DNA of 64,000 nucleotides from an uncultured Planctomycetota bacterium (GTDB lineage: Bacteria > Planctomycetota > Planctomycetia > Isosphaerales > Isosphaeraceae): assembly GCA_963823665.1 (NCBI GenBank), contig CAWGMQ010000010.1, positions 1,280,001-1,344,000 of the forward strand. The letters run 5' to 3'. The notes beneath the pieces were generated by a model, which was not told the origin of the DNA, did not search any database, and worked only from the letters and a program-made list of their open reading frames with translations. This document shows positions 24,601 to 39,963 of this stretch, one piece after another (positions within the stretch are counted from its first letter, which is position 1; the number at the start of each line of letters is the position of its first letter). Position numbers and translations under genes: made by a program.

Positions 24601-25322
24601 CGATCGATTACACGCTCTCCGAGCCGACGACGACGGCCGGCATCACCCCGGCCCCGCTCACGGTATCGGGCATCACGGCCGCGAACAAGGTCTTTAGCGC
24701 CAGCACCGCGGCCACCCTGAATACCTCGGGCGCGACTCTGGTGGGCGTGTTCAGTGGCGATACGGTCAGTCTCAAAACCGGCAGCGCCACCGGCACGTTC
24801 GCCTCCCAGAATGTGGGCACGGGCATCACGGTCACGGTGGCCGGTCTGACCATCGTCGGGGCCCAGTCGGCCAACTACACGCTCACCCAGCCGACGACAA
24901 CGGCCAGCATCACTCCGACGGCCACGCAGCGACCAATGATCATCAGCGAGCAGGCGTTGATCGTTCGCAAGACCAGCAAGAAAGGAAAGCCGGTCGGCAA
25001 ACCGGTTCTCGGCGGCTACGTGTTCGATTTCAGCAGCGCGCTCGATCCTTCATCCGCAGCGAATTCCGGCAATTACCAGGTCGATAACGTCGTCCGCAAG
25101 CGCGTGAAGAAAAAGGTCGTGAGTACGCTGCATCCGATCACCAGTTTCAACGCGTCCTACAGCAACGACGTGGTCACGATCAAGTTCGCGGGTAAGCAAG
25201 CGTTCAAGACCGGGGGCCAGATCACGGTCCTGAGCGGTGTGACCGGCCCGTCGGGCGCCGCGCTTCAGGGAACGACGGTGTTTACGATCTCCAAGCGCGG
25301 GAAGGGCATCACGCCGTCGTGA
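21627..25322 (+). CDS. Large extracellular adhesin-like protein: beta-helix repeats, choice-of-anchor-Q-like, Ig-like and YDG-like repeats
   Basis: Leader RRPNLESLEDRRLLS; many TLTxCTISGNSAxxGGGVYN repeats; GGPTQTIALLPGS..TDQRG..DIGAFE; repeated AANKVYN/AANKVFS units; AGGAG RBS. Confidence 0.88.
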   Translation: MIRTHCRSARRPNLESLEDRRLLSTFTVENTNSSGTGSLALAIGSADADRQANTITFDPNVFGTPQTIAVGGTVPLVLTDSSGLQTLTGPAAGVTIEGNGQSVVFEVANGVTATLSGLTITKGNGRKGGALYNAGTVTLTGCTISGNSADYGAGMENYAGTATLTGCTISGNSAGFAGGGVYSKRGTVTLTDCTISGNTAAQVNGGLTNGGTATLTGCTISGNSAKYGGGVYNFTYGTATLTDCTISGNSAEIRGGGLSNQGTATLTDCTISGNSSVDGAGVYNSSHKATLTGTIVAGNSDQSVPDDIGGFAATAVTGSFNLIGTGGSGGIVNGSQGNIVLTSLEGLGLAPLGDFGGATETLALLPGSPALGKGTVADYPGTTTPITTDQRGFPVDAPNPDIGAFQGVNLEVESTSGSVDMQPSSLTLPGAISLANSLERTTITFDPAVFAMPQTITLAGSPLELSNAGSTTSIMSPAAGVTISGAGQSSVFALENGASATLSGLTITDGNSRFGGGVDNLSGAATLTDCTLTGNSAGSNGGGVYNGLGTTTLTDCTISGNSAGSGGGVDNSAGTVMLTDCTISGNSGSDGGVYNGGTATLTGTIVAGNTNPSGASDIGGPTKVSGSSSNNLIGIGGAGGLTSGTSNNIVLTSLAGLGLAPLGFYGGPTQTIALLPGSAAIGAGIAVSGLTTDQRGLPRIVGGVVDIGAFESSGFSLAITTGNDQSTSVGTAFPNALQVTVTPKNAGDPVNGGVVTFTPPASGPGATLTPSAPVTIASGSASVMATANGTAGDPYLVTAATTGASSVSFTLTNNPAGSYSTLVSLGSSESLSTYGQPVIFTATVNNTSASGGIPTGSVEFFDGTTDLGAGTPLSGSGTSARSTFSAARLPAGTDSISALYTATGGFAGGTGTLGQTVNPAVLTVSGLTAANKVYNASTAATLNTSSATLVGVDSGDLVNLNTGAATGTFASKNTGTDIKVTVAGLTIVGAQAIDYTLSEPTTTAGITPAPLTVSGITAANKVFSASTAATLNTSGATLVGVFSGDTVSLKTGSATGTFASQNVGTGITVTVAGLTIVGAQSANYTLTQPTTTASITPTATQRPMIISEQALIVRKTSKKGKPVGKPVLGGYVFDFSSALDPSSAANSGNYQVDNVVRKRVKKKVVSTLHPITSFNASYSNDVVTIKFAGKQAFKTGGQITVLSGVTGPSGAALQGTTVFTISKRGKGITPS

Positions 25323-25345
25323 TCCCCCCTTTCCGCCAAGACCCT

Positions 25346-25366
25346 ATTTTGAGTCCGGCGCGTCTG
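25346..25366 (-). repeat. tRNA-Leu(CAA) D-arm/anticodon fragment, att-like
   Basis: attttgagtccggcgcgtctg matches 12088-12108 at 19/21. Confidence 0.7.
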
Positions 25367-25399
25367 GCATAAGTCTGACGTTGGAAGGGCGACGAGATG

Positions 25400-26192
25400 G
25401 CCAGCTCGATGCCGTCGGTCTTGTTGTTCGAGACCGTGTTACCGGAGATCGTCCCGCTCGTAGAAGTGCTCACCAGGATGCCCTGACCCTGACCGGGGAG
25501 GCCGTTCGACGTGATCTGGTTGTAAAGGACGCGCATACCAGTCGAGTCGCCCACGTCAATGCCGTCGTTGGTCGACAACGTGACGGTATTCAGCTCGATC
25601 GTGTTGCTGTTCGACTGCAGTAACGAGACGCCGAGACTATTGCCCGAGACCGTATTGCCGGAGGCGGTATTCCCGCTCGACAGGTCGAGCGAGAGGCCGG
25701 TCCCCTGGCTGTTTTTGACCGTGTTGTTGTCGATAGCAAGCCCGCTGCTCTGCGTGACTCGAACCCGTCGAGCCCCGAGTTCTGGACAACGTTGCCGCGG
25801 ATGATGTCGTTCGTCGCCGCGGAGACGCTCAGTCCCTTGTCCTTACTGTTGATGATCAGATTGGCTTCGACCACCGCGTTGCGCTCACCGGAAAGAACCA
25901 CGCCGACATCGCTGTCCTGGACGACATTGTCGAAGAAGGTGGTGTTGCTCACGCCGGAGCCGTCGTCGATGCCATGGCCCGACGGGCTCTGCACTGTGAA
26001 CCCGTTGAATGTTGAATTGCTGCCGGTGATGGAATCAGTGCCCACGACGATCGACTCGTTGGCCGCGTTTGTCCGCGTCAACTGGTTTGGATTGACGTTG
26101 GTCTGGGCGCCCTCGATATCAATCGCGCCTTTCACGGTCACATTTCCGTTGTAGGTTCCGGGTCCAACTTCGATGGTATCTCCCGGCTTCAT
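25400..26192 (-). pseudogene. NosD-like right-handed beta-helix protein remnant
   Basis: PGDTIEVGPGTY, then N-rich repeats spread across frames; no leader; breaks off next to the tRNA fragment. Confidence 0.65.
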
Positions 26193-26485: not shown

Positions 26486-29156
26486 GTGCCCATTCTCATT
26501 TGCAGGCCCAGGGCGCTGACAGACCAGCAATTGCAACTCGCGGCCCAGCGCAGCATCGAGCTCAACCCGGCCAATGCGGTGGATTCCCGGACTGTCGAAC
26601 GGACGACGGTCGGCCGCCGGGGCGGACCGCGACGCCTCGCGCTGCTGGTGGGAAACCGCTGGCCGGCCGCCGGCATGACGTTGACGGTTCAGTTTCTTGA
26701 TAATCCCAGCACCGCGCTCAGGAAAAAGATTCTGGAGCATATGAATGCCTGGAACACCTCCTGCAGCATCAACTTTGTCGAGACGCAACGTGACGGCATG
26801 GTTCGCCTCGCCAGGTATAACCATCCGAAGGATGTGGCGGGATACTGGTCGTACGTCGGAACGCAGATCCTGGGGATCAAGGCCGGTGAGCCTACACTCA
26901 ACCTCGAAGGCTTCACCGCGCGCACGTCGGACGCCGAGTTCAAGCGCGTGGTGCGGCACGAGGCTGGGCACACGCTTGGTTTTGAGCACGAACACATGCG
27001 GTCGGAGCTGGTAGAGCGGATCGACCGGCGTAAGGCGATCGCGTACTACGATAGCACGCAAGGCTGGACCGCGAAGGAGACGAAAAACCAGGTGCTCACA
27101 CCGCTGGCGGCGAGTTCGATCATGGGGACGACCGAGGCCGACCCAATTTCGATTATGTGCTACGAGATTCCGGCGGCAATCACCAAGGACGGCAAGCCGA
27201 TTCGCGGCGGTGAGGATATCAACCCCAAGGACTATCAGTTTGCGGCCAAGGTTTATCCCAAGCGTCCGCCCCAGGGCCACGCCGCCGTACCACCACCGCC
27301 CCCTCCCGGCGATGCGGCTTACGTCCCCTCCTACGCCGTCGCGGCACCGACGGACAGCGACACGCTGCACATCGTCGTCATGGACGAGTTCGATCCGAAG
27401 AAGGGCGTGCCGACCGGTTCGGATGAGCCCCGATTCGCCCGCGTTCTTGCCACCTACGCAGGCGCGCGCGTGACCGGTACGATGCGCCTGCGAGCCGAAC
27501 CCGGCGAGCCGCGAACGAACTTCGGGAAAATCATCGGCACTCACGAACGGATCAAGAAGTATACGAACCACGACGAGGGCACTCTCCCGAGCGACCAGGA
27601 GCTGCTCCGGTTCGGCAGCGACCTTTTCGAGGCGATGTTCCAGGGAGACGTGCGGCGCCTGTACGACGAGGCTCGCGCCCGCCAGCAGAATCGCAAACTC
27701 GATATCGTGCTCACTTCGATGATCCCCTGGATCGCCGAGAAGCCCTGGGAGTTCGCCTATGATGCCGGACGCGAAAGCTTCTTGGCGACGGAAGAGGTGC
27801 ACCTGGTCCGCAATGTGTTGACGTCGGTGCCGGCCAGTGCGATTCCGCCGAAACCTGGACCAGTGCGGATCCTGGTGGCAGCGGCCCAGCCGGTCGGATT
27901 GGGACAACTCTCGGTCGACGAGGAGATCGAGGTCGTCCGCCGGGGCTTCGGGCCCTTGGAAGACGAGCATCTGGTCTCCGTCGAGGTCCTGCCTCGCGCC
28001 ACGCCGCGCGGCCTTCAGGCTCGCTTGGCCACGGGCAGCTTTACGGTGGTCCACTTCATCGGACACAGTACGTTCGACGAGAAAACGCAAGAAGGCGTGA
28101 TGTTCTTCGAGGATGATCAGGGCGGACAACTCCGCCTCAACCCGCGCTCGGTCCGCGAGATCTTCTGTAAGCGCGGCGTCGCTCTGGTCTTCCTCAACTC
28201 CTGTGAAAGCGGTTCGGGCGCCCGGCACAACTTCAATCGCGGCGTGGCGCAGGCGATGGTGTCGCACGGTCTGCCGGCCGTGATCGCGAACCAGTACAGC
28301 GTGCTCGACTCCTCGGCGACTTCGTTCGCGCAGCATTTCTACTGGTCGATCGCAAACGGGATGAGCATTGGCCAGGCAGCCTGCGAGGCGAGGATCGCGG
28401 TGAACTGTTCGCTGAGCGGTGAGATCATCGACTGGGCCGTGCCCGTCGTGTATGTCCGCGACCCAAACATGACCATCTGCGTCAAACCGGACAAAGCTGT
28501 CCCGCCGGTCGTCGCCGTGCGCAGGATCGGCCCGCCGCGCCCTCGAGGACCGGCCCGTTCGCGTTGCCGTTTGGGACATCGATAGCGTGTTTCCCTCGCT
28601 CAGCCATACGCTCGACCGCATGAATCGCGCCCAACCGACGTTCGGGTTCGAGCTGGCGGCCCTCTCGGCGCCGATCGATGCGTGGTACGTCGATGAGCGG
28701 GCTCCCGACGGCACACCCTACCTGTGGGCCGAGAGGCTCGCCGGCCGTCTCAAAGACTTGACGGTTGAGCTAAGGGTGAACGTACTCGCGTGCATCACGC
28801 GACACTGGCTGCGCGATGACAACTGGCTTAACATCTACGGCTGGTGGCCCGCCAAACAAAAGCCACCGGTCATCATCTTTTCCTGCGCGGGATTTGATGA
28901 TTTGAAGCCCTCCGGGCCGGATACCGACCGCGCGATCGCAAACGTCACCGTGACTTGCTTGGCGGGGTTTTTCGGTGACCTCGACTCGCACGCGCGGGCA
29001 CCGAATGACTGCCCGCTCGCACTTGACCGCGAGCGCGACTTTGCTGTCCTGATCGGCAGGCAGGCCTTCGATTCACGCTGCCGCGCCAAGCTCAAAGCGA
29101 AGATTCTCCAACAACACCTCACCGCGCTCGAGGCCCTGCTCAAACCATTACCGTAG
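26486..29156 (+). CDS. Metzincin (astacin/M12-like) protease + CHAT caspase-like domain + C-terminal domain; frameshift near 28520
   Basis: HEAGHTLGFEH and Met-turn SIMCY; CHAT dyad VHFIGH and VFLNSC, plus VIANQY and DWAVPVVY. The frame of ORF 28587-29156 extends upstream as SARRALEDRPVRVAVWDIDSVFP, implying one gene. GTG start follows AGGGGG. Confidence 0.8.
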
Positions 29157-29170
29157 ATTGGAGCATCGCG

Positions 29171-30349
29171 ATGGCGAAGACGCAGAAGACAACGTCCGCT
29201 CGCAAGCCTTCAACTCGAAAAAGAGCCGCGAAGCGAGCGACTGCCACATCGACGCCAGCGAGGCCTGCGCGCCAAACGGCGATAGCCGTACCTGCCAGCG
29301 CGATGACTGGCGGGCCGGTGACACTGGACGAGGCCCGGGCCCTGGCTCAGGCGCCATCGCCCGCACGGACGCTGCGAAGGGCTGGTGCGCCGGCCCAGCA
29401 AGCGGCCACACATGCTTCCGTCGCGGATGAGCGCGACAAGCTCGACAATCAGATCCGTGAAGAAAACGAGCGGCGCGTCCGCGAGTACAAGGCGATGATG
29501 GACATCATGAAGAGCCGAGGTGTAAAGGGATTGGCACCCGCTGCGGCGGCCGCACCCGGTCCGAGACGCCGACGGGCCGCCGCCGCCGCCGCGGCGCCCG
29601 CTCGGCCACCCTTGCAGATCTTCGCGGAGGGGGATTCGTGGTTCGATTACCCGGTTCCCTTTTTCGGGGGTGGTGTCGTGCCGCGTCTCGAACGCCGGCT
29701 GGGTGTGCCGATCCTCAGCCTCGCCAAGGCCGGAGATGAAGTGCGGAATATGCTCGGAGTCGAGGAGCGCGAGATCCTCGCGCAGCAACTCGAGGATGGC
29801 TCGCCGGCCGGTGGGCGCTGGGATGTGCTGCTGTTCTCCGGAGGTGGCAACGACATCGTCGGCAATCCCATGGCACTCTGGATTCAGGACTTCAATAAAT
29901 CCGTTCCACCTGCCAACTTGATCAGCACATCGCGGTTCACCGCCGCCCTGGCGCTCGTGCGAGCCGGCTACGAAGACCTGATCACGCTTCGCGACACGAT
30001 CAGTCCCACCACGCATCTCGTGTTCCACGGTTATGACTTCGCCATTCCCGACGGTCGCGGGATTTGCGGCTTCGGTCCCTGGTTGAAGCCCACGTTCGAC
30101 CTGCGCGGGTTTCCCGCGAGGACTGCCGCGACCGCGGTCGTCAAAGCGATGCTGCTTCAGTTCGCGGCGATGTTGCAGGCGCTGGCGCCGCTTCACAACG
30201 CGGTGACATTCATCAACACGCAAGGGACTTTGCCGCCCGTGACCAGTTCGTGGGATAACGAGCTGCATCCGTCCAAGAACGGCTTCGACATGATCGCCGC
30301 GGTCTTCCATACGAACCTGAAGACGTTATTTCCGGGTCGCGTATTGTGA
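29171..30349 (+). CDS. SGNH/GDSL hydrolase with a long basic N-terminal extension
   Basis: AEGDSWFDYP (block I Ser), SGGGNDI (block III), WDNELHP (block V His); about 145 aa of Ala/Arg-rich and coiled sequence before the domain. Confidence 0.88.
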   Translation: MAKTQKTTSARKPSTRKRAAKRATATSTPARPARQTAIAVPASAMTGGPVTLDEARALAQAPSPARTLRRAGAPAQQAATHASVADERDKLDNQIREENERRVREYKAMMDIMKSRGVKGLAPAAAAAPGPRRRRAAAAAAAPARPPLQIFAEGDSWFDYPVPFFGGGVVPRLERRLGVPILSLAKAGDEVRNMLGVEEREILAQQLEDGSPAGGRWDVLLFSGGGNDIVGNPMALWIQDFNKSVPPANLISTSRFTAALALVRAGYEDLITLRDTISPTTHLVFHGYDFAIPDGRGICGFGPWLKPTFDLRGFPARTAATAVVKAMLLQFAAMLQALAPLHNAVTFINTQGTLPPVTSSWDNELHPSKNGFDMIAAVFHTNLKTLFPGRVL

Positions 30350-30361
30350 GCATGGAAACAC

Positions 30362-31693
30362 TTACGCAAGCATCGACTTATGATCGACGGCTGGTGTTGC
30401 ATGCCCGGCCGCGACGGCCGCGCTGATCGGTTCGATGATCGCGAGCGCCGAGAATAGCGCAGTGGCGAGTGTGAGATCAAGTAGTTCGGCGTCTGAGAGC
30501 CCAAGCGCAAGGATCTTGCGGATCTGTTGATCGCTGATCGTATAGGCCGCGTTCGCCACCTGCCACGAATATCGGCGACACGCCGACACGAGACTCGAAT
30601 CGGTGGGGGCAGATGACGGAGCAGCCCACAAGAGGAGTGTATTCGAATCGGGCAACGACCCCTGGGACAGCCACAGGTCGACCGCCCTGCTCAGGCCCGA
30701 ACCCGACATCGCCCGAGATGCCACGGCGATCGCCGCCGCTTCTTTCAAAAGGTCGAAACGGACGCCGGCGCTCGTGACGTTGACTTCGATCATCTCGAGT
30801 ACCCCCTCGAGCACCACCGGCGATCGACTCAACCAGTTGAAGACGTCGGGCACATCCCCTGCACCTAGACGCTCAAACACGACACCGAGCCGATCCAGCA
30901 GTTCTTCCGGCGAATGACGGGGTTGATGCTTGTAAGAGAGGTCATAAGTCAGACCGGTCAGCCACGCCATCCGCCGCTCGACCCAGCCCCGGATCGGCTT
31001 CAACTCGCGAAGGAATTCGTATTCGAGCCGCACGCGTCGCGCGTCCGCGATGCGATTGACGGCGTTAAACGCAAACACGACGCCCGCCGTCTCGAGCAGG
31101 AGATCCGCGTCGCCTATACGGGCCGCGGCCGAGGCGATCCAGTCGACATCCAGGTGTGTCACGGGCGAGGCGATCGTCGCGTGCGCCGCCAGCGCGATGA
31201 GCAAGCTCTCGGCACCCGTACAACCTGCCCGCTCGACGCGCTCGGCGATCCGCTCTGGGTCCAGTACCGGACGCCCAGCGGGGAACCCATTACTTATACT
31301 TGAGTTATTAAGTGTAAGGAGACGGATATCTCCCGAGGCCTGTCCGTCGTGTGGAGATCGGATCGCCTCTGTGACGGCGTCGACCAGGTCGTGTGCTTTA
31401 CCGAAATCGGATCCTGCAGCCTGCAGGAAGAGCAGATGCTCCGACGTTCAGTAGAAGCACTGGTTGGCCGCCGAAATTGCTACCGCGATCGACTCCCGTA
31501 ATCGCCGTGTACCGGCCTCGCCGCCCCACATGAGAGACAGCCAGGTCTTCTTGAACGAAGCCTGGTAGGTGGGCCGGCAACGGAACGTCTCGGCGATGCT
31601 CGGGTTCGTCCAGATATAACGCCCGGCGAGTTGCCTGGTCGCGCGAACCAGCGCACTTGTGATCAAGCTACCCATCGTCAGGTAAACCCCCAT
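30362..31693 (-). CDS. AhpD/carboxymuconolactone-decarboxylase-like protein with an in-frame TGA at the CxxC position (putative selenoprotein)
   Basis: RESIAVAISAANQCFY[TGA]TSEH; the frame stays open into ORF 30362-31204, which has DLLLETAGVVFAFNAVNRIADA and GLSDAELLDL. Confidence 0.75.
31407..31447 (-). promoter_or_regulatory. Candidate bacterial SECIS stem-loop
   Basis: After the UGA: acg-UCGGA-gcaucugcucu-UCCUGCA-ggc-UGCAGGA-UCCGA; apical loop starts with G, 26 nt from the UGA. Confidence 0.55.
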
Positions 31694-31699
31694 TCGGGA

Positions 31700-32668
31700 T
31701 CATCTCGCGGTGCCAGCCATCCCCGGCTCAAGCGTGAGGGATCCTTGCTGAATTGCGCGAACGGACCGCCATGCCGCCCAGGCGTACAAACCCGCACCCC
31801 GCATGGTGGAGACGATCGCGAGCGCGAGGAACAAACCGTACACCACATGCTCGACCAGGAGCACGCCGTAGACCGCTGCGATCGCAGTAGCGAATAGCGC
31901 CTGGCGCAGCGGCTTGACCGGCGTCGTTGCCGGGTCAGGGATCATGTACAGGGTAAATACCATGAACGCCGCACTTGTCATCGGCGTCAGGGGCACGATC
32001 CATGATGTCCCGAAGTACCAGCTTCGCACCTGACCCTGGACAACAAACGCAACCAGCCACACGAGAACCATCGTCAATCGGCCCGTGAACAACGCATGGA
32101 CGATGATGCCCGTCGCCAGCACGAAGCCGGGCAGCGCCCAGTGCCACATCCCGGTCAGGTTCTCCGTGAAGTGATACGGTGGTGCCACTCCGATCGACGG
32201 GAACAAAAGCAATGTGGCCACAATCCCAATGTTTGACGGGTTGAAGATGTGCTGCGTTTTGCCGTCACCCACAGGTGCACGGAAAATCACCTTCGAGCAA
32301 ATGGCGACGCCGACGCCGAATATGATCGGCATCAGCCTCTCGTTGGGAAACAGAAGCATCGTGACTGCCAGGCCCGGGATGATGGCAGGCGGCAGAAAGT
32401 TGATGAGGTCCCCCCACGAGCCGGCGAACCGCAGCTTGCGGTTGGCCGCTCGCGCGTCGATCCACTCCAGCAGGAATTGGAGGCCGATCGCCGTCGCTAG
32501 CCCGACGAGCGGTTGGATATGCGACTGCTCGAAGCCGAGAAACACATGGCCGACGATGTTCCAGACAACGAGTAATAAGGTGAAGTACCAAAGGGCGAAA
32601 TATCGACGCAAGGCGCTGCGCTTGGGGTAGAACTGCAGCGTGGTTATCGCGTCGGCCGTTGTCGTCAT
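31700..32668 (-). CDS. UnbU-like membrane protein (enediyne-cassette E4 type)
   Basis: GHVFLGFEQS, HIFNPSNIGI, APPYHFTEN, FTLYMIPDPATTP; start overlaps the UnbV stop. Confidence 0.85.
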   Translation of the reverse strand: MTTTADAITTLQFYPKRSALRRYFALWYFTLLLVVWNIVGHVFLGFEQSHIQPLVGLATAIGLQFLLEWIDARAANRKLRFAGSWGDLINFLPPAIIPGLAVTMLLFPNERLMPIIFGVGVAICSKVIFRAPVGDGKTQHIFNPSNIGIVATLLLFPSIGVAPPYHFTENLTGMWHWALPGFVLATGIIVHALFTGRLTMVLVWLVAFVVQGQVRSWYFGTSWIVPLTPMTSAAFMVFTLYMIPDPATTPVKPLRQALFATAIAAVYGVLLVEHVVYGLFLALAIVSTMRGAGLYAWAAWRSVRAIQQGSLTLEPGMAGTAR

Positions 32669-34665
32669 CAAAGCGCTCTCTTCCCGTCTGCCGGCCAACC
32701 GAGTCGGATCGTGTGCCAACCCGCCTTCAATTGAAAAGTCTCCTCATGCGGGTTGCCGTCGGGATCCCGCCAGCGAATCACGACGGGAGCTTCGGCGATT
32801 GTACCGAGCCCCAGATGAACATCCGGGGCACGTTTTCCGGCATAGCCGCTTCCGCCGTCGACCTGGGCCACCCGCTTTTGCCCCTCCGGCAACTGGATGG
32901 CCACTGCGGCGCCGATGGCCGGCCGGCCCGGGATTTCCCCGGCTGGATGACCGATACCCGGTAGGGCGAGCGTTGCCTTTCCCTTTTCCAGAGGGAGCAA
33001 CAGGTGCAGCCCCATGAAGTTGCCGGGCTTGGGACACTCGTTGTGGTAGAAGTAAGACGGCTGCCATTGATTCGCAACGGCGAAATCGAGCCGCCCGTCG
33101 CCATCGACGTCGGCCAGCGAGATTCCGCGCGTCACCATCGCCTCGGACATCGACTGACCGTCCTGCAACATCAGTTTAGGGGCCACGTCGTAATACCGGC
33201 CGTCCCTGGCCCTGACGAAGAAGGCAAAGGTGTCATGGCCGCTGACGTCGTCGCCAGGCTGAAGGCTCGGCCAGAACTTGGGATTGTGCAAGAGCTGGTT
33301 GTTGCTGGTGCCAAGGCTTTGCAGTTCGGGCCACTTGTTGATTCGCCCTTTGAGGAAGCCATTCGCCTGAAGCGCCTCGAGGACGCCGTCGTTGTTCAAA
33401 TCCGCCAGCCGGCAGTCCCACGACCAGCCACTGCGTGACAGCCCCAGTTCTTCGCTGGCTTGCCGGAACGGCGCGATCCCGTCGTGCATACGCGCTGTCT
33501 CGCCGGTGTTCAGCCACAGGAAATGGCTCTCGGTGAGGGCCCACCTGGACGTCAGATTGCTCACGTAGATATCCAGCAGTCCATCGCCGTTTATGTCGCC
33601 GAAGTCCACGCCCATACCTTTGAAAGAGTCCTGATTGATGACGCACGAGGCCGGCGTGCCCATCGTGCGCTCTCCCTGCAAGGCCACGAACTGAAAGTAA
33701 CCGGGGGTCGAGCGATTGTGCAGCAGGCGGTCAGGGCCGAAGTCGTTGGAAACGTAGATTTCCGGCAGCAAGTCACCGTCGAGATCAGCGGGCCCGATTG
33801 CAAAGCTCCAGCCGTGGGTCAGTTCCTCGGCGATCGCATCCTTCTGCTGGTCGAAGCGGACCGTCGGATGCCGGCCCGCGGTCGAGCTCACGAACCGGAA
33901 AAATCGGAGACCACCGCCGTTGCCGGACCTCGCCAGCGAGTCGTGCAAGGTTTCGTACCCCTGGGCATTCTCGTCGAACATTCGAGAGCCGTCAGGGAGG
34001 TAGTTGCCGATGATCAGATCGAGGTGCCCGTTGCCATCGAGGTCGGCCGCAGCCGCCGTTGAGGAGTACCAGCGGTCGCCCCCCTTGATCAGCTCCTGCG
34101 ATTCGAACTCGGCGGCCGAGGGCGGCGTCTTCGAGTCGGCCGGCGTTCTGCGCAGATAAACGATCGGGCTACGGCCCCACAGGACGACGAGCACGTCCAG
34201 GAGACCGTCCTCATTCAAGTCGGCGATCAGGGAGCTCTGAGGGCACATCGTCGCCGGGTTCCAGTTGGGGAACGACGATCCGGGGTCGAGTGCGAATGTT
34301 TCGTAACGCGCCCCGGTACCAGGCACAGGACCGCATATGACCTGGTCAGTGCGTGGATCGACCCAGACGACGTCGTTTTGCAGTCCGTCGCCGTCCAGAT
34401 CGCCCAGCGCCACACCGGCCCCGAGTGAGGACAAGTATGCTCGGATGTGCTGCACGCTGGGGTGCACCTTGCGGACGTACTTGTACGGCGGGTGGTTGGC
34501 CACTTCGGGCAACGGCGTTCGCGTAAACCGGAAGTTGTTGACGGCCGCTTCTGACTCGGTCCTCGAGAGCGCCCGCTCGCGAGTCATTACGTACAGGCTG
34601 ATGACAATCACCGCCGACACGAGCAAGGTGGCTCGGCGCCGCACCGATCCAGGCGGTCGGTTCAT
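32668..34665 (-). CDS. ASPIC/UnbV (CRTAC1-like) FG-GAP repeat protein
   Basis: Multiple DLDGDG-type repeats, SNDFGPDRL, DSFKGMG, C-terminal QVDGGSGYAGKRAPDVHLGLG; N-terminal TM; AGAGGAG RBS. Confidence 0.9.
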   Translation of the reverse strand: MNRPPGSVRRRATLLVSAVIVISLYVMTRERALSRTESEAAVNNFRFTRTPLPEVANHPPYKYVRKVHPSVQHIRAYLSSLGAGVALGDLDGDGLQNDVVWVDPRTDQVICGPVPGTGARYETFALDPGSSFPNWNPATMCPQSSLIADLNEDGLLDVLVVLWGRSPIVYLRRTPADSKTPPSAAEFESQELIKGGDRWYSSTAAAADLDGNGHLDLIIGNYLPDGSRMFDENAQGYETLHDSLARSGNGGGLRFFRFVSSTAGRHPTVRFDQQKDAIAEELTHGWSFAIGPADLDGDLLPEIYVSNDFGPDRLLHNRSTPGYFQFVALQGERTMGTPASCVINQDSFKGMGVDFGDINGDGLLDIYVSNLTSRWALTESHFLWLNTGETARMHDGIAPFRQASEELGLSRSGWSWDCRLADLNNDGVLEALQANGFLKGRINKWPELQSLGTSNNQLLHNPKFWPSLQPGDDVSGHDTFAFFVRARDGRYYDVAPKLMLQDGQSMSEAMVTRGISLADVDGDGRLDFAVANQWQPSYFYHNECPKPGNFMGLHLLLPLEKGKATLALPGIGHPAGEIPGRPAIGAAVAIQLPEGQKRVAQVDGGSGYAGKRAPDVHLGLGTIAEAPVVIRWRDPDGNPHEETFQLKAGWHTIRLGWPADGKRAL

Positions 34666-35018
34666 CGTGCAAGCTCCTCTCTCAATCGCCCCGGCACGCT
34701 GCCGCAGCTTGCGAGCGAAGACGGACCCTTGTTCGAGGTGGGAGAACCCCACCTTCAAACGCGAAGCCCCGAATAGGATCAGTTTAATCCACGCTGGTTC
34801 GCGTCACAAGCAAAACGATGGGGACATCACCTGCGCTGTCGATGGGCTCGAACACAAGACTGAATCTCTCCGAGAGCGAAAGCCATTCGTCCGACACTCC
34901 GACGCGTTCTTCGACTCTGCCAGACCGGCTCGAATCGCTTGCAATCCATCTTGAGTCACGTCTATGATAATGGCTGGAGTGCGCTCCTCAAGGCGGGCGG
35001 CGCATCCAAGTCATGATG

Positions 35019-38530: not shown

Positions 38531-39669
38531 TCACGTCGCCGATCCAACCGGAGCGATGCTCTCCACCAGCTCTGCGCGGTGGTTCTGCTTTTTCTGGTGA
38601 GTGAGAATCGTGAGGCCCATCTTCACCTTGTCCGTGATGGTCTTCTGCGATAGGCACGTGTACAGGCAAAGGCGGTCGCATTCCACCGTCTGGCGGCGTA
38701 TCTCCTGCGCCTTCGGCCCGTACCAGATCTCCCGGGCCGATTTTTCCTTGATGTTGCCGATCGATGGATAAAAAAAGCAGACTTCGATCTCGCCGTCGGT
38801 CTTGATAAAGAAATCGCGCATGCCGACCCGGCAGGGCATCACCTCAGGCGGTGCGGCCTCTTCGCGGAAGTGCCGCACAATCAGCCCGATCACCATCTCC
38901 GAGTTCATGATCGGCTCGCCGCTGCGCTTCAGCTCGAGCATCTTGTCGACGACTTTCTGAAGCTCCGCGTGCTCGTCTTGCTCGATCCAGAGCTCGTTAT
39001 ACGTTTCCGGCGTCCAGCGATCCATGGGCTGGAAGTTCGAGCGCCGTGGCGCCGACTTCCTTCACCCATTGCACCATGTCCGGCAGGTACTTGTAGTTCT
39101 TCTTGCCGATGGTCGGCTTGATGATGATCGGAAAGTCGAGCCCGCGCTTGTCGCGCTCTTCACGCACGTATTTGATTCCGTCGGAGAGCTTCTGGAATAG
39201 CCCCGGCCACCCTCGAAGGTAGTCGTGCAGATCGGCGTTGGGGGCGTCAACCGATACGTTCAAGTTCCACGGGTGCGCCTCGACGAATTTGATCGCATTC
39301 TTGCGATTGAGTGCCGACCCGTTCGTTGTCACTCCGGAGTGAATCCCGTTCTGATGGCAGAACGCCATGATGTCGATGAACCCGGGCTTGATGAACGGCT
39401 CGCCGCCGCTGAAGCTGATCGAATACGTGCCCACGAAGTCCTTGATGTAGCAGGAGCGCCCTCTGCCAGTCCTCGATGGACATCTCGTCGCGATATTTCG
39501 GTAGCCGCCAGTACTCGCAGTACCGGCACTTCACGTTGCAGTGCTCGTTCACGATTGCGTAGAACGTTACAGGCTTCGTGTAGTCATGGCCGGAATGAAT
39601 GTACAGCTCTTCGGCGAAGTGGTTGTATGTGTGTTTGAAAGCCAGTTGGGCAAGCGTCGAAGTCTTCAT
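38531..39669 (-). CDS. Radical SAM protein with a SPASM/twitch-like C-terminus; two frameshifts (about 39450 and 39040)
   Basis: CNVKCRYC, SFSGGEP, VTTNG, VSVD; C-terminal C...DGEIEVC...CDRLCLYTC across three ORFs. Confidence 0.85.
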
Positions 39670-39963
39670 AGCGGTTCCCAGGTGCGTCGCGCTCTGCGGT
39701 AAGTACAAATAGGCACAAGAACCGTAGCAGAACGCGCGCGTCGCGATCAAACAAATTTGGGCGAATGTCGCCAGAAACGAACATGGCCATGCCGGTCGCG
39801 CTAAGGGCAGACTTTCCAAGGACGCGCCCGACCTTGCCGCTCATGGCTTGACCACCGGCGCTCGATGGCGTTAACGTGTTGTCTGTCTTCAGCCTCGGGA
39901 GTCGGGGACACCGCCTGCCTGAAAACAAATATTGGTGCGCTTCACATTGGGGAGTTCCAGCCG

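Follow-up and report, generated by a model that had tools for sequence, protein, structure and literature searches.

Does a double protease that lies directly ahead of an esterase-like gene in a planctomycete genome act on its neighbor, and would the two together form a defense or cell-death system? The question is raised by two adjacent genes in a 64,000-nucleotide (nt) stretch from an uncultured Planctomycetota bacterium of the Isosphaeraceae (GCA_963823665.1, contig CAWGMQ010000010.1, positions 1,280,001 to 1,344,000), the whole of which is referred to here as the window. The upstream gene encodes a metzincin fused to a CHAT protease and the downstream gene encodes an SGNH hydrolase. We found a conserved gene pair that is apparently an undescribed variant among protease-effector systems, and in which the SGNH hydrolase is an optional, exchangeable partner of the protease. 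An earlier reading made from the letters alone (the sequence-only reading) had proposed a proteolytic cascade that unmasks a lipase. Linkage of the genes, and an arginine motif that tracks linkage, speak for this proposal, while the optional nature of the hydrolase and the presence of its supposed pro-domain helix in SGNH proteins lacking a CHAT partner speak against it.

Linkage was assessed in 77 GTDB loci encoding the protease. Six that were cut short and three stand-alone metzincins were excluded, leaving 68 assessable loci. An SGNH gene was found downstream in 40 of these, upstream in two and starting at a contig end in two, while 24 had none. The two genes thus adjoin in 44 of 68 loci, with gaps mostly <30 nt, and linked loci occur in Pseudomonadota, Acidobacteriota, Verrucomicrobiota, Planctomycetota, Gemmatimonadota and Nitrospirota, so that the sequence-only reading does not fail on its own proviso that the genes be linked in other genomes. 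The linked SGNH proteins are of two types, with ~46-67% and 30-37% identity to the window protein, separated by a branch of about 2.1-2.3 with unlinked members between them. All 15 proteases linked to one of them (type B) fall in one clade, which is consistent with a single replacement of the SGNH type; the loci without an SGNH gene are scattered over the tree. An obligate two-gene system is rejected in view of the loci without an adjacent SGNH gene and of the genomes in which none was found.

The linker between the N-terminal part of the SGNH protein and its catalytic domain carries paired arginines followed by a small residue. The pattern RR[AG][PL]/RRRA was present in 34 of 38 protease-linked proteins, compared with a mean of 4.3 and a maximum of 11 in composition-matched shuffles. 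A related pattern, RRR[AG]/RR[AG]P between the helix-like segment and the catalytic domain, was found in 36/39 linked proteins versus 1/64 free ones, and in 1/44 of those free proteins with at least 600 nt of upstream sequence. With 17 rows added the counts became 37/40 and 3/80, the two new free matches lying within the helix; rows below the length limits of the script are left out of these motif counts. Close free relatives nested among the linked proteins lack the motif, as do free relatives that are equally basic. Since the motif tracks gene linkage, the sequences fit a protease-substrate pair. The linker between the CHAT and C-terminal domains of the protease is likewise enriched, with RR[AG] in 29 of 56 proteins versus 10.1 in shuffles.

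A third arginine site lies in the protease propeptide. Both Cys6, a candidate cysteine switch, and Arg50 are invariant in 44/44 aligned homologues, and Arg50 aligns with the arginine after which mature myroilysin (5ZJK) begins, making it a candidate maturation site. The sequence RRGG was present in the propeptide of 70 of 83 fused proteases versus one of the seven stand-alone metzincin relatives inspected. The window genome holds a second, stand-alone myroilysin-like gene (G000:C4:1084860-1085669; L080), whose product has the N-terminal cysteine and lacks the maturation-site arginines; in five genomes holding stand-alone metzincin genes no match to the fused protease's C-terminal domain was found.

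The active site that this propeptide would guard appears complete. The zinc motif HEAGHTLGFEHE, a HEXXHXXGXXH followed by the family glutamate, as in the definition used for astacin-like M12A peptidases (PMC9848320), is intact in all 44 homologues, as is a Met-turn of the form S[IV]MCY, in which the tyrosine two residues on is kept and the histidine of SIMHY is replaced by cysteine. These results bear out the intact metzincin motif (HEAGHTLGFEH plus E, aa 158-169) and Met-turn (SIMCY, aa 222-226) of the sequence-only reading. The open reading frame (ORF) at 26486-28585 matched the Pfam Astacin family (E value 5e-7) and myroilysin 5GWD (E value 1.4e-25), and myroilysin was the closest match to the catalytic domain (E value 8e-31), although the alignment to 5GWD starts only at position 45, past Cys6. 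The domain thus resembles myroilysin (PDB 5GWD, 5CZW, 5ZJK) in having an arginine at the matching maturation position and a cysteine in a short propeptide, and differs from it in lacking a signal peptide, being fused to CHAT and having SIMCY for SIMHY. When 44 protease homologues and 38 of the SGNH protein were put through a crude hydropathy test, none showed a hydrophobic N-terminus or a Tat motif, in line with the earlier view that neither protein has an obvious signal peptide; the median N-terminal hydropathy of the 44 proteases was 0.99, and by this measure the signal peptide of secreted M12A enzymes is absent. Since the metzincin bears candidate latency features of its own, it would need an activator. 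Its propeptide is more likely than the SGNH protein to be the first substrate.

The candidate activator, the CHAT domain (Pfam CHAT, E value 1e-29), has the dyad residues His527 (at 28064) and Cys573 (at 28202), the cysteine being present in 44/44 homologues and the histidine motif in 43/44. The dyad was earlier called intact, and both residues are present, but the window copy has HFIGHS in place of the usual HG. The nearest solved structure is SAVED-CHAT 8TL0 (E value 6e-10), with which the window domain has the sequence VxDSA in common; the PADLOC SAVED_CHAT match covers just positions 58-271 of the 498 in the profile. A match to HetF was weak (E value 1e-5, far under the family cut-off), and an NCBIfam scan gave no match above cut-off. 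Separase has a P1 arginine specificity with an arginine-binding aspartate, as described in the available part of PMC10317155; no alignment of separase to the window CHAT was obtained, and hence no mapping of that aspartate. In a tree of CHAT domains the window copy groups with Planctomycetota.

Beyond CHAT, the protease carries a third domain of ~200 aa, an addition to the anatomy described before. Its residues H147, C154 and C177 are conserved in 150/150 aligned rows, it contains HExxH in 0/44 homologues, and no match was found in Pfam or PDB profile searches. HHalign produced a colinear but weak alignment of 153 columns to archaemetzincin M54 (E value 0.016, probability 2.8%), compared with 7-19 columns (E values 0.07-0.22) for three controls; the third histidine and the two cysteines match, while the first two histidines and the glutamate are absent. 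The domain is possibly a degenerate archaemetzincin-like pseudo-protease. The nearest named atlas cluster, DUF6775/DUF7001 (score 0.77), is a lead only. Among the 120 longer homologues of this domain that were listed, the N-terminal slot was occupied by a metzincin in 83 and by DUF7379, an alpha/beta-hydrolase carrying HSRGG, in 22. Because these two alternate, CHAT plus the C-terminal domain is the constant core of the protease. The DUF7379-CHAT-C-terminal-domain fusions inspected (L029:928-4434, L031:5399-8839, L052, L061:2683-6084 and L072:7743-11420) have several RRG/RRA motifs in their first 200 aa and no adjacent SGNH gene, and in L031, L052 and L072 the metzincin is a separate upstream gene.

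The downstream gene, described earlier as a GDSWF-type SGNH hydrolase starting 14 nt after the protease, corresponds to an ORF of that kind at that spacing. GDSWF lies at aa 154-158, and the Lipase_GDSL_2 match (E value 7e-6) is under the Pfam cut-off. In 99 sequences Ser156, Gly188, His366 and Glu364 are invariant and Asn227 is >90% conserved, so that blocks I, II, III and V can be recognized. SGNH/GDSL enzymes usually have a catalytic aspartate in a DxxH motif; here N-E-L-H stands at that position, with the invariant Glu364 instead of the aspartate. The family comprises 2298 representatives, and no relatives were found in PDB or in phage records. The ~145-aa N-terminus had been called low-complexity, a description that holds for part of it only: the charged helix-like segment at aa 87-117 occurs ahead of the catalytic domain in nearly all members that have an N-terminal stretch. 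Because that segment is family-wide, the extension cannot be put down to low complexity alone, which rules out that description for the N-terminus as a whole, yet neither is it specific to the operon. Some members are fused to thermolysin (M4), sedolisin/subtilase (S53/S8) or trypsin (3 of 12 long proteins scanned).

Taken together, the sequences suggest a cytoplasmic protease-effector conflict module, a reading to which we give about an even chance of being correct: CHAT would cut after paired arginines, unlock the metzincin and clip the SGNH hydrolase. Once set off by a trigger, which the C-terminal Cys/His domain may sense, the CHAT protease would cleave where RR is followed by a small residue. 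A cut at the propeptide would remove the cysteine switch and release an active, broad metzincin as executioner, and a cut in the linker to the C-terminal domain would free the domains. At the SGNH RRRA, cleavage would leave the catalytic domain without its basic tail and helix, most likely activating the hydrolase. The module would probably turn on the host itself, harming its proteins and the lipid or O-acetyl esters of its envelope, with death or lysis in the course of a biological conflict. Precedents exist for several of these steps in the available texts of three reports: an arginine-specific caspase-like protease that activates an alpha/beta-hydrolase zymogen at an R-G site (10.1101/2025.11.14.688446), arginine-specific bacterial caspase-like proteases that cut broadly (10.1101/2024.10.24.620036) and a type III-B CRISPR system whose CHAT initiator switches on a second protease (10.1101/2023.06.23.546230). 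It is tempting to extend the module into a two-tier death cascade written in the code of RR then a small residue, an extension we consider improbable as a whole. In it, a dead metalloprotease domain would serve as bait or sensor and release the CHAT initiator, the cysteine-switch metzincin would be unlocked in cis, and swappable envelope effectors (the two SGNH clades, each recruited independently, the DUF7379 hydrolase and an amidase fusion), all having gained the tag on joining the operon, would be cut in trans, leading to a programmed lysis that needs neither a nucleotide signal nor an NLR or CRISPR input.

Several observations weigh against a conflict module. SGNH genes are missing from 24 of the 68 loci, and of 27 genomes lacking an adjacent copy three gave a match elsewhere (a floor); in 401 Acidobacteriota genomes an SGNH match occurred in 15, the C-terminal domain in three and both together in one. 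The SGNH gene lies beside the protease in just one of the 15, and many free SGNH genes have no protease neighbor. Free SGNH proteins without a CHAT partner also keep the N-terminal helix. The SGNH motif pattern was picked after the linked alignment had been viewed, and independent-pair tests of it were underpowered (five pairs, ~3 concordant and none discordant, p 0.25; later two pairs, p 0.5). The protease tree tracks taxonomy fairly well, the gene being less mobile than a typical defense gene. No sensor domain was recognized in the protease, and most scanned neighbors (90 proteins; 59 chosen ones) are unrelated to defense and of ordinary metabolic kinds. PADLOC, a check named in the sequence-only reading, recognized the CHAT part and neither SGNH type nor a system. 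Csx29 cuts Csx30 at residues 427-429, and the available text of PMC10028731 states no arginine rule; CHAT specificity can evidently differ, and a P1 arginine for the window CHAT is a prediction by analogy. Lastly, the window copy itself bears a frameshift and an HG to HS change.

Some of these points would suit regulated processing outside defense, in which a HetF-like developmental or stress protease trims a remodeling SGNH esterase, its tail being cut for turnover or relocation. We hold this to be not very likely. The weak HetF match, the action of HetF on PatU3 in differentiation (available part of PMC9457339), the vertical-looking protease tree and the mostly housekeeping neighbors agree with it, but occurrence is very patchy (the full gene in 0/100 genomes of the window's family; 3/401 Acidobacteriota genomes), partners have been lost and swapped repeatedly, and some loci abut MBL/CHAT/patatin, trypsin-nuclease or restriction modules (MBL, metallo-beta-lactamase). 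Quite unlikely, in our estimate, is a different order of events, in which the metzincin processes the SGNH protein or acts first, or in which the helix is a structural or dimerization element and cleavage inactivates the hydrolase. A helix that is family-wide and retained in free SGNH proteins would be expected then, and stand-alone M12 genes do adjoin free SGNH genes (L106, L110, L135 and plasmid H5); the M12-adjacent SGNH proteins inspected (L106, L110, H5), however, lack the RRRA motif, and the candidate latency features of the metzincin would call for an activator.

If the genes were simply co-inherited cargo of protease-rich islands, the arginine runs would be a by-product of GC-rich basic linkers. 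The linkers are indeed rich in Arg, Ala and Pro, the related sequences are not independent and the independent-pair tests are non-significant, but the 34 of 38 observed against 4.3 of 38 in composition-matched shuffles, the equally basic free relatives without the motif and the occurrence of the motif in two distant clades make such hitchhiking distinctly unlikely. We regard as highly improbable an outward-facing enzyme cocktail for predation or antagonism, exported non-classically or by lysis with the basic tails as loading signals. Enzymes of the myroilysin type, like those that degrade murein, usually work outside the cytoplasm, and neighbors in plasmid operons of SGNH fusions include GH19, chitosanase, amidase and MepA; still, hydropathy gave no signal peptide, and the scanned neighbors include no secretion apparatus and no conserved immunity-like gene.

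Read as a conflict module, the pair most resembles the modules of Evans et al. (10.1101/2025.11.14.688446). As far as the available text describes them, these share an adjacent caspase-fold protease and hydrolase, activation of the hydrolase by a cut after Arg and ahead of a small residue (R then G), which is predicted for the window pair, and modular partners, and have in common with our loci the DUF7379 alpha/beta-hydrolase of the sister architecture and MBL genes flanking some loci; the window pair differs in its SGNH-fold effector, in a CHAT with an in-cis metzincin and C-terminal domain, and in having no recognized STAND or other known sensor. Like the protease-effector defense modules with MBL, alpha/beta-hydrolase, Pepco or EACC1 components, its two genes are adjacent, but its effector is, going by PADLOC and the main text of Evans et al., of no described effector family. 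SAVED-CHAT/PCaspase (10.1101/2023.06.23.546230; 8TL0), in the part of that source available, has a CHAT initiator activating a broader second protease, as proposed here, and is the nearest solved CHAT, whereas here the second protease is a metzincin on the same chain rather than a caspase; membership was rejected, with no SAVED domain and no Cas genes among the scanned neighbors. In Craspase (TPR-CHAT Csx29/Csx30) and bacterial gasdermin systems a CHAT or caspase-like protease processes its neighbor, as predicted for the window pair, but no TPR, Cas7-11, Csx30 or gasdermin was found among the scanned neighbors, and membership in these was rejected as well. HetF of heterocyst differentiation shares the CHAT domain and differs in architecture and neighbors. 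No description of a CHAT or caspase with an SGNH or astacin partner was found in the literature searched, which left subscription journals and preprint supplements largely outside, and, as far as these were available, the main text of Evans et al. mentions neither SGNH nor GDSL and that of PMC7159879 makes no mention of SGNH. Supplements beyond this search list uncharacterized sensor types, which may bear on novelty.

The window copy is not itself a clean example. The sequence-only reading mended one frameshift to obtain a protein of ~890 aa, and this holds: the remainder of the protease after the first ORF continues in another reading frame, and comparison with P0323, an 888-aa protein that is the nearest homologue with an intact frame (85% identity over aa 1-678), puts the whole at ~889 aa. 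In the great bulk of the 77 loci a single ORF covers both parts. A radical SAM/SPASM gene in the window (38531-39720, minus strand) is split across three frames, so that an assembly error is probably the likelier cause of the frameshift. A beta-helix gene (25309-26192, minus strand) also appears broken, and the two genes together suggest indel errors in the assembly. None of the contigs examined from public sequencing runs bridges the frameshift site, and no RNA run is listed with window sequence, only small shares being found. The serine directly after the catalytic histidine is another matter, as HG is found in 43/44 homologues and HS in 0/83 fused proteases; because of this replacement the window copy may be decaying. 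The GC (guanine plus cytosine) content of the window, 0.61-0.65, is not atypical here. The "accessory" label given earlier to the region therefore stands on patchy distribution, not on composition; a search of 100 genomes from the window's family yielded no full-length protease gene, nor did a search of plasmids.

The features of the two genes are collected in Table 1. A promoter and terminator scan of the locus gave nothing informative. The pair is followed by a convergent gene (30362-31204, minus strand) for a 280-aa protein with a weak AhpD-like peroxidase-related match (TIGR01926, E value 6e-4), which does not recur as a neighbor in related loci, and then (31700-34758, minus strand) by an FG-GAP/ASPIC-UnbV protein and a membrane protein, unrelated to the pair, which we take to be of the kind accompanying enediyne-type clusters.

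Table 1. Features of the protease and SGNH hydrolase genes, in window positions
Feature	Position	Strand	Remarks
Metzincin-CHAT protease ORF	26486-28585	+	GTG start, 699 aa; metzincin motif, SIMCY and CHAT dyad within
Propeptide, aa 1-50	26486-26635	+	Cys6, a candidate cysteine switch, and Arg50, last residue of RRGGPRR, both invariant
Myroilysin-like M12A metzincin domain	26636-27265	+	HEAGHTLGFEHE at 26957-26992; SIMCY at 27149-27163
Pre-CHAT segment and CHAT (clan CD) protease	27360-28470	+	Pfam CHAT aa 376-654
Single frameshift, CHAT-to-C-terminal-domain linker	28520-28527	+	tblastn of intact homologues changes frame there
C-terminal domain, ~200 aa	28551-29156	+	H147, C154 and C177 invariant; HExxH absent
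SGNH hydrolase ORF	29171-30349	+	392 aa; start 14 nt past protease stop
SGNH basic, Ala/Thr/Arg/Pro-rich extension, aa 1-86	29171-29428	+	
SGNH charged helix-like segment, aa 87-117	29429-29521	+	Conserved across whole SGNH family
SGNH RRRRA linker motif, aa 132-136	29564-29578	+	Candidate cleavage site
SGNH catalytic domain	29609-30349	+	Ser156, Gly188, Asn227, His366; N-E-L-H

Relatives of both genes were also seen in other settings. Among the protease loci, some border on genes for MBL, patatin, trypsin-nuclease or type I restriction, and eight (L007, L009, L012, L021, L022, L024, L026, L062) have an adjacent degenerate CHAT-like protein of ~880-1040 aa, a module found mostly with an LmuA/Avs1a-like MBL hydrolase and a patatin-like gene. 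At L009:2757-4190 and 13 other loci, in Pseudomonadota, a signal-less Amidase_2 is fused to a conserved, unassigned ~205-aa domain; of the 11 linkers that are complete, all from close kin, 10 have RRR with A, T or S after it (by the strict pattern 5/11 versus a shuffle mean of 0.65). A likeness of this amidase's C-terminal domain to Cyt/volvatoxin-like pore formers was not supported by Pfam and PDB profile searches. An SGNH-caspase fusion on Rhizobium plasmids and a trypsin-SGNH fusion on a Geminocystis plasmid head operons of cell-wall hydrolases (L221, NZ_CP030764.1, 5716-12651; L223, NZ_AP014828.1, 1468-7431). The genes there encode a chitosanase, an L,D-transpeptidase-like protein, GH19, an amidase and a murein endopeptidase (MepA), the hydrolases lack obvious signal peptides, and one operon ends in a C25 peptidase; the amidase of the cyanobacterial Geminocystis operon has 62% identity to the amidase beside protease loci. 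Free SGNH genes adjoin S8, C25, trypsin, M12, C14 or HExxH-protease/MBL genes at some loci and ordinary genes at many, a descriptive observation. One such cluster (L110:509-6713) contains two unknown genes, the SGNH, a stand-alone M12 and an EACC1-type caspase, and at L111:2-3474, L116:2639-5481 and L177:1-1110 a HExxH metalloprotease with no Pfam match lies beside the SGNH gene, accompanied in L111 and L116 by an MBL gene.

Intact copies of the pair exist in cultured strains, namely Bradyrhizobium sp. DOA9 and cir1; the copy in Rudaea sp. 3F27F6 lacks the C-terminal domain and that in Taklimakanibacter albus lacks the SGNH gene. Together with the predicted sites, Arg50 and the SGNH RRRA, these copies make the model testable. 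The arginine tag may further provide a sequence handle for finding additional CHAT substrates. If the model is true, SGNH esterases and cysteine-switch metzincins would join the bacterial effectors activated by proteases, and a cascade from a caspase-fold protease to a metalloprotease would be contained within one polypeptide.

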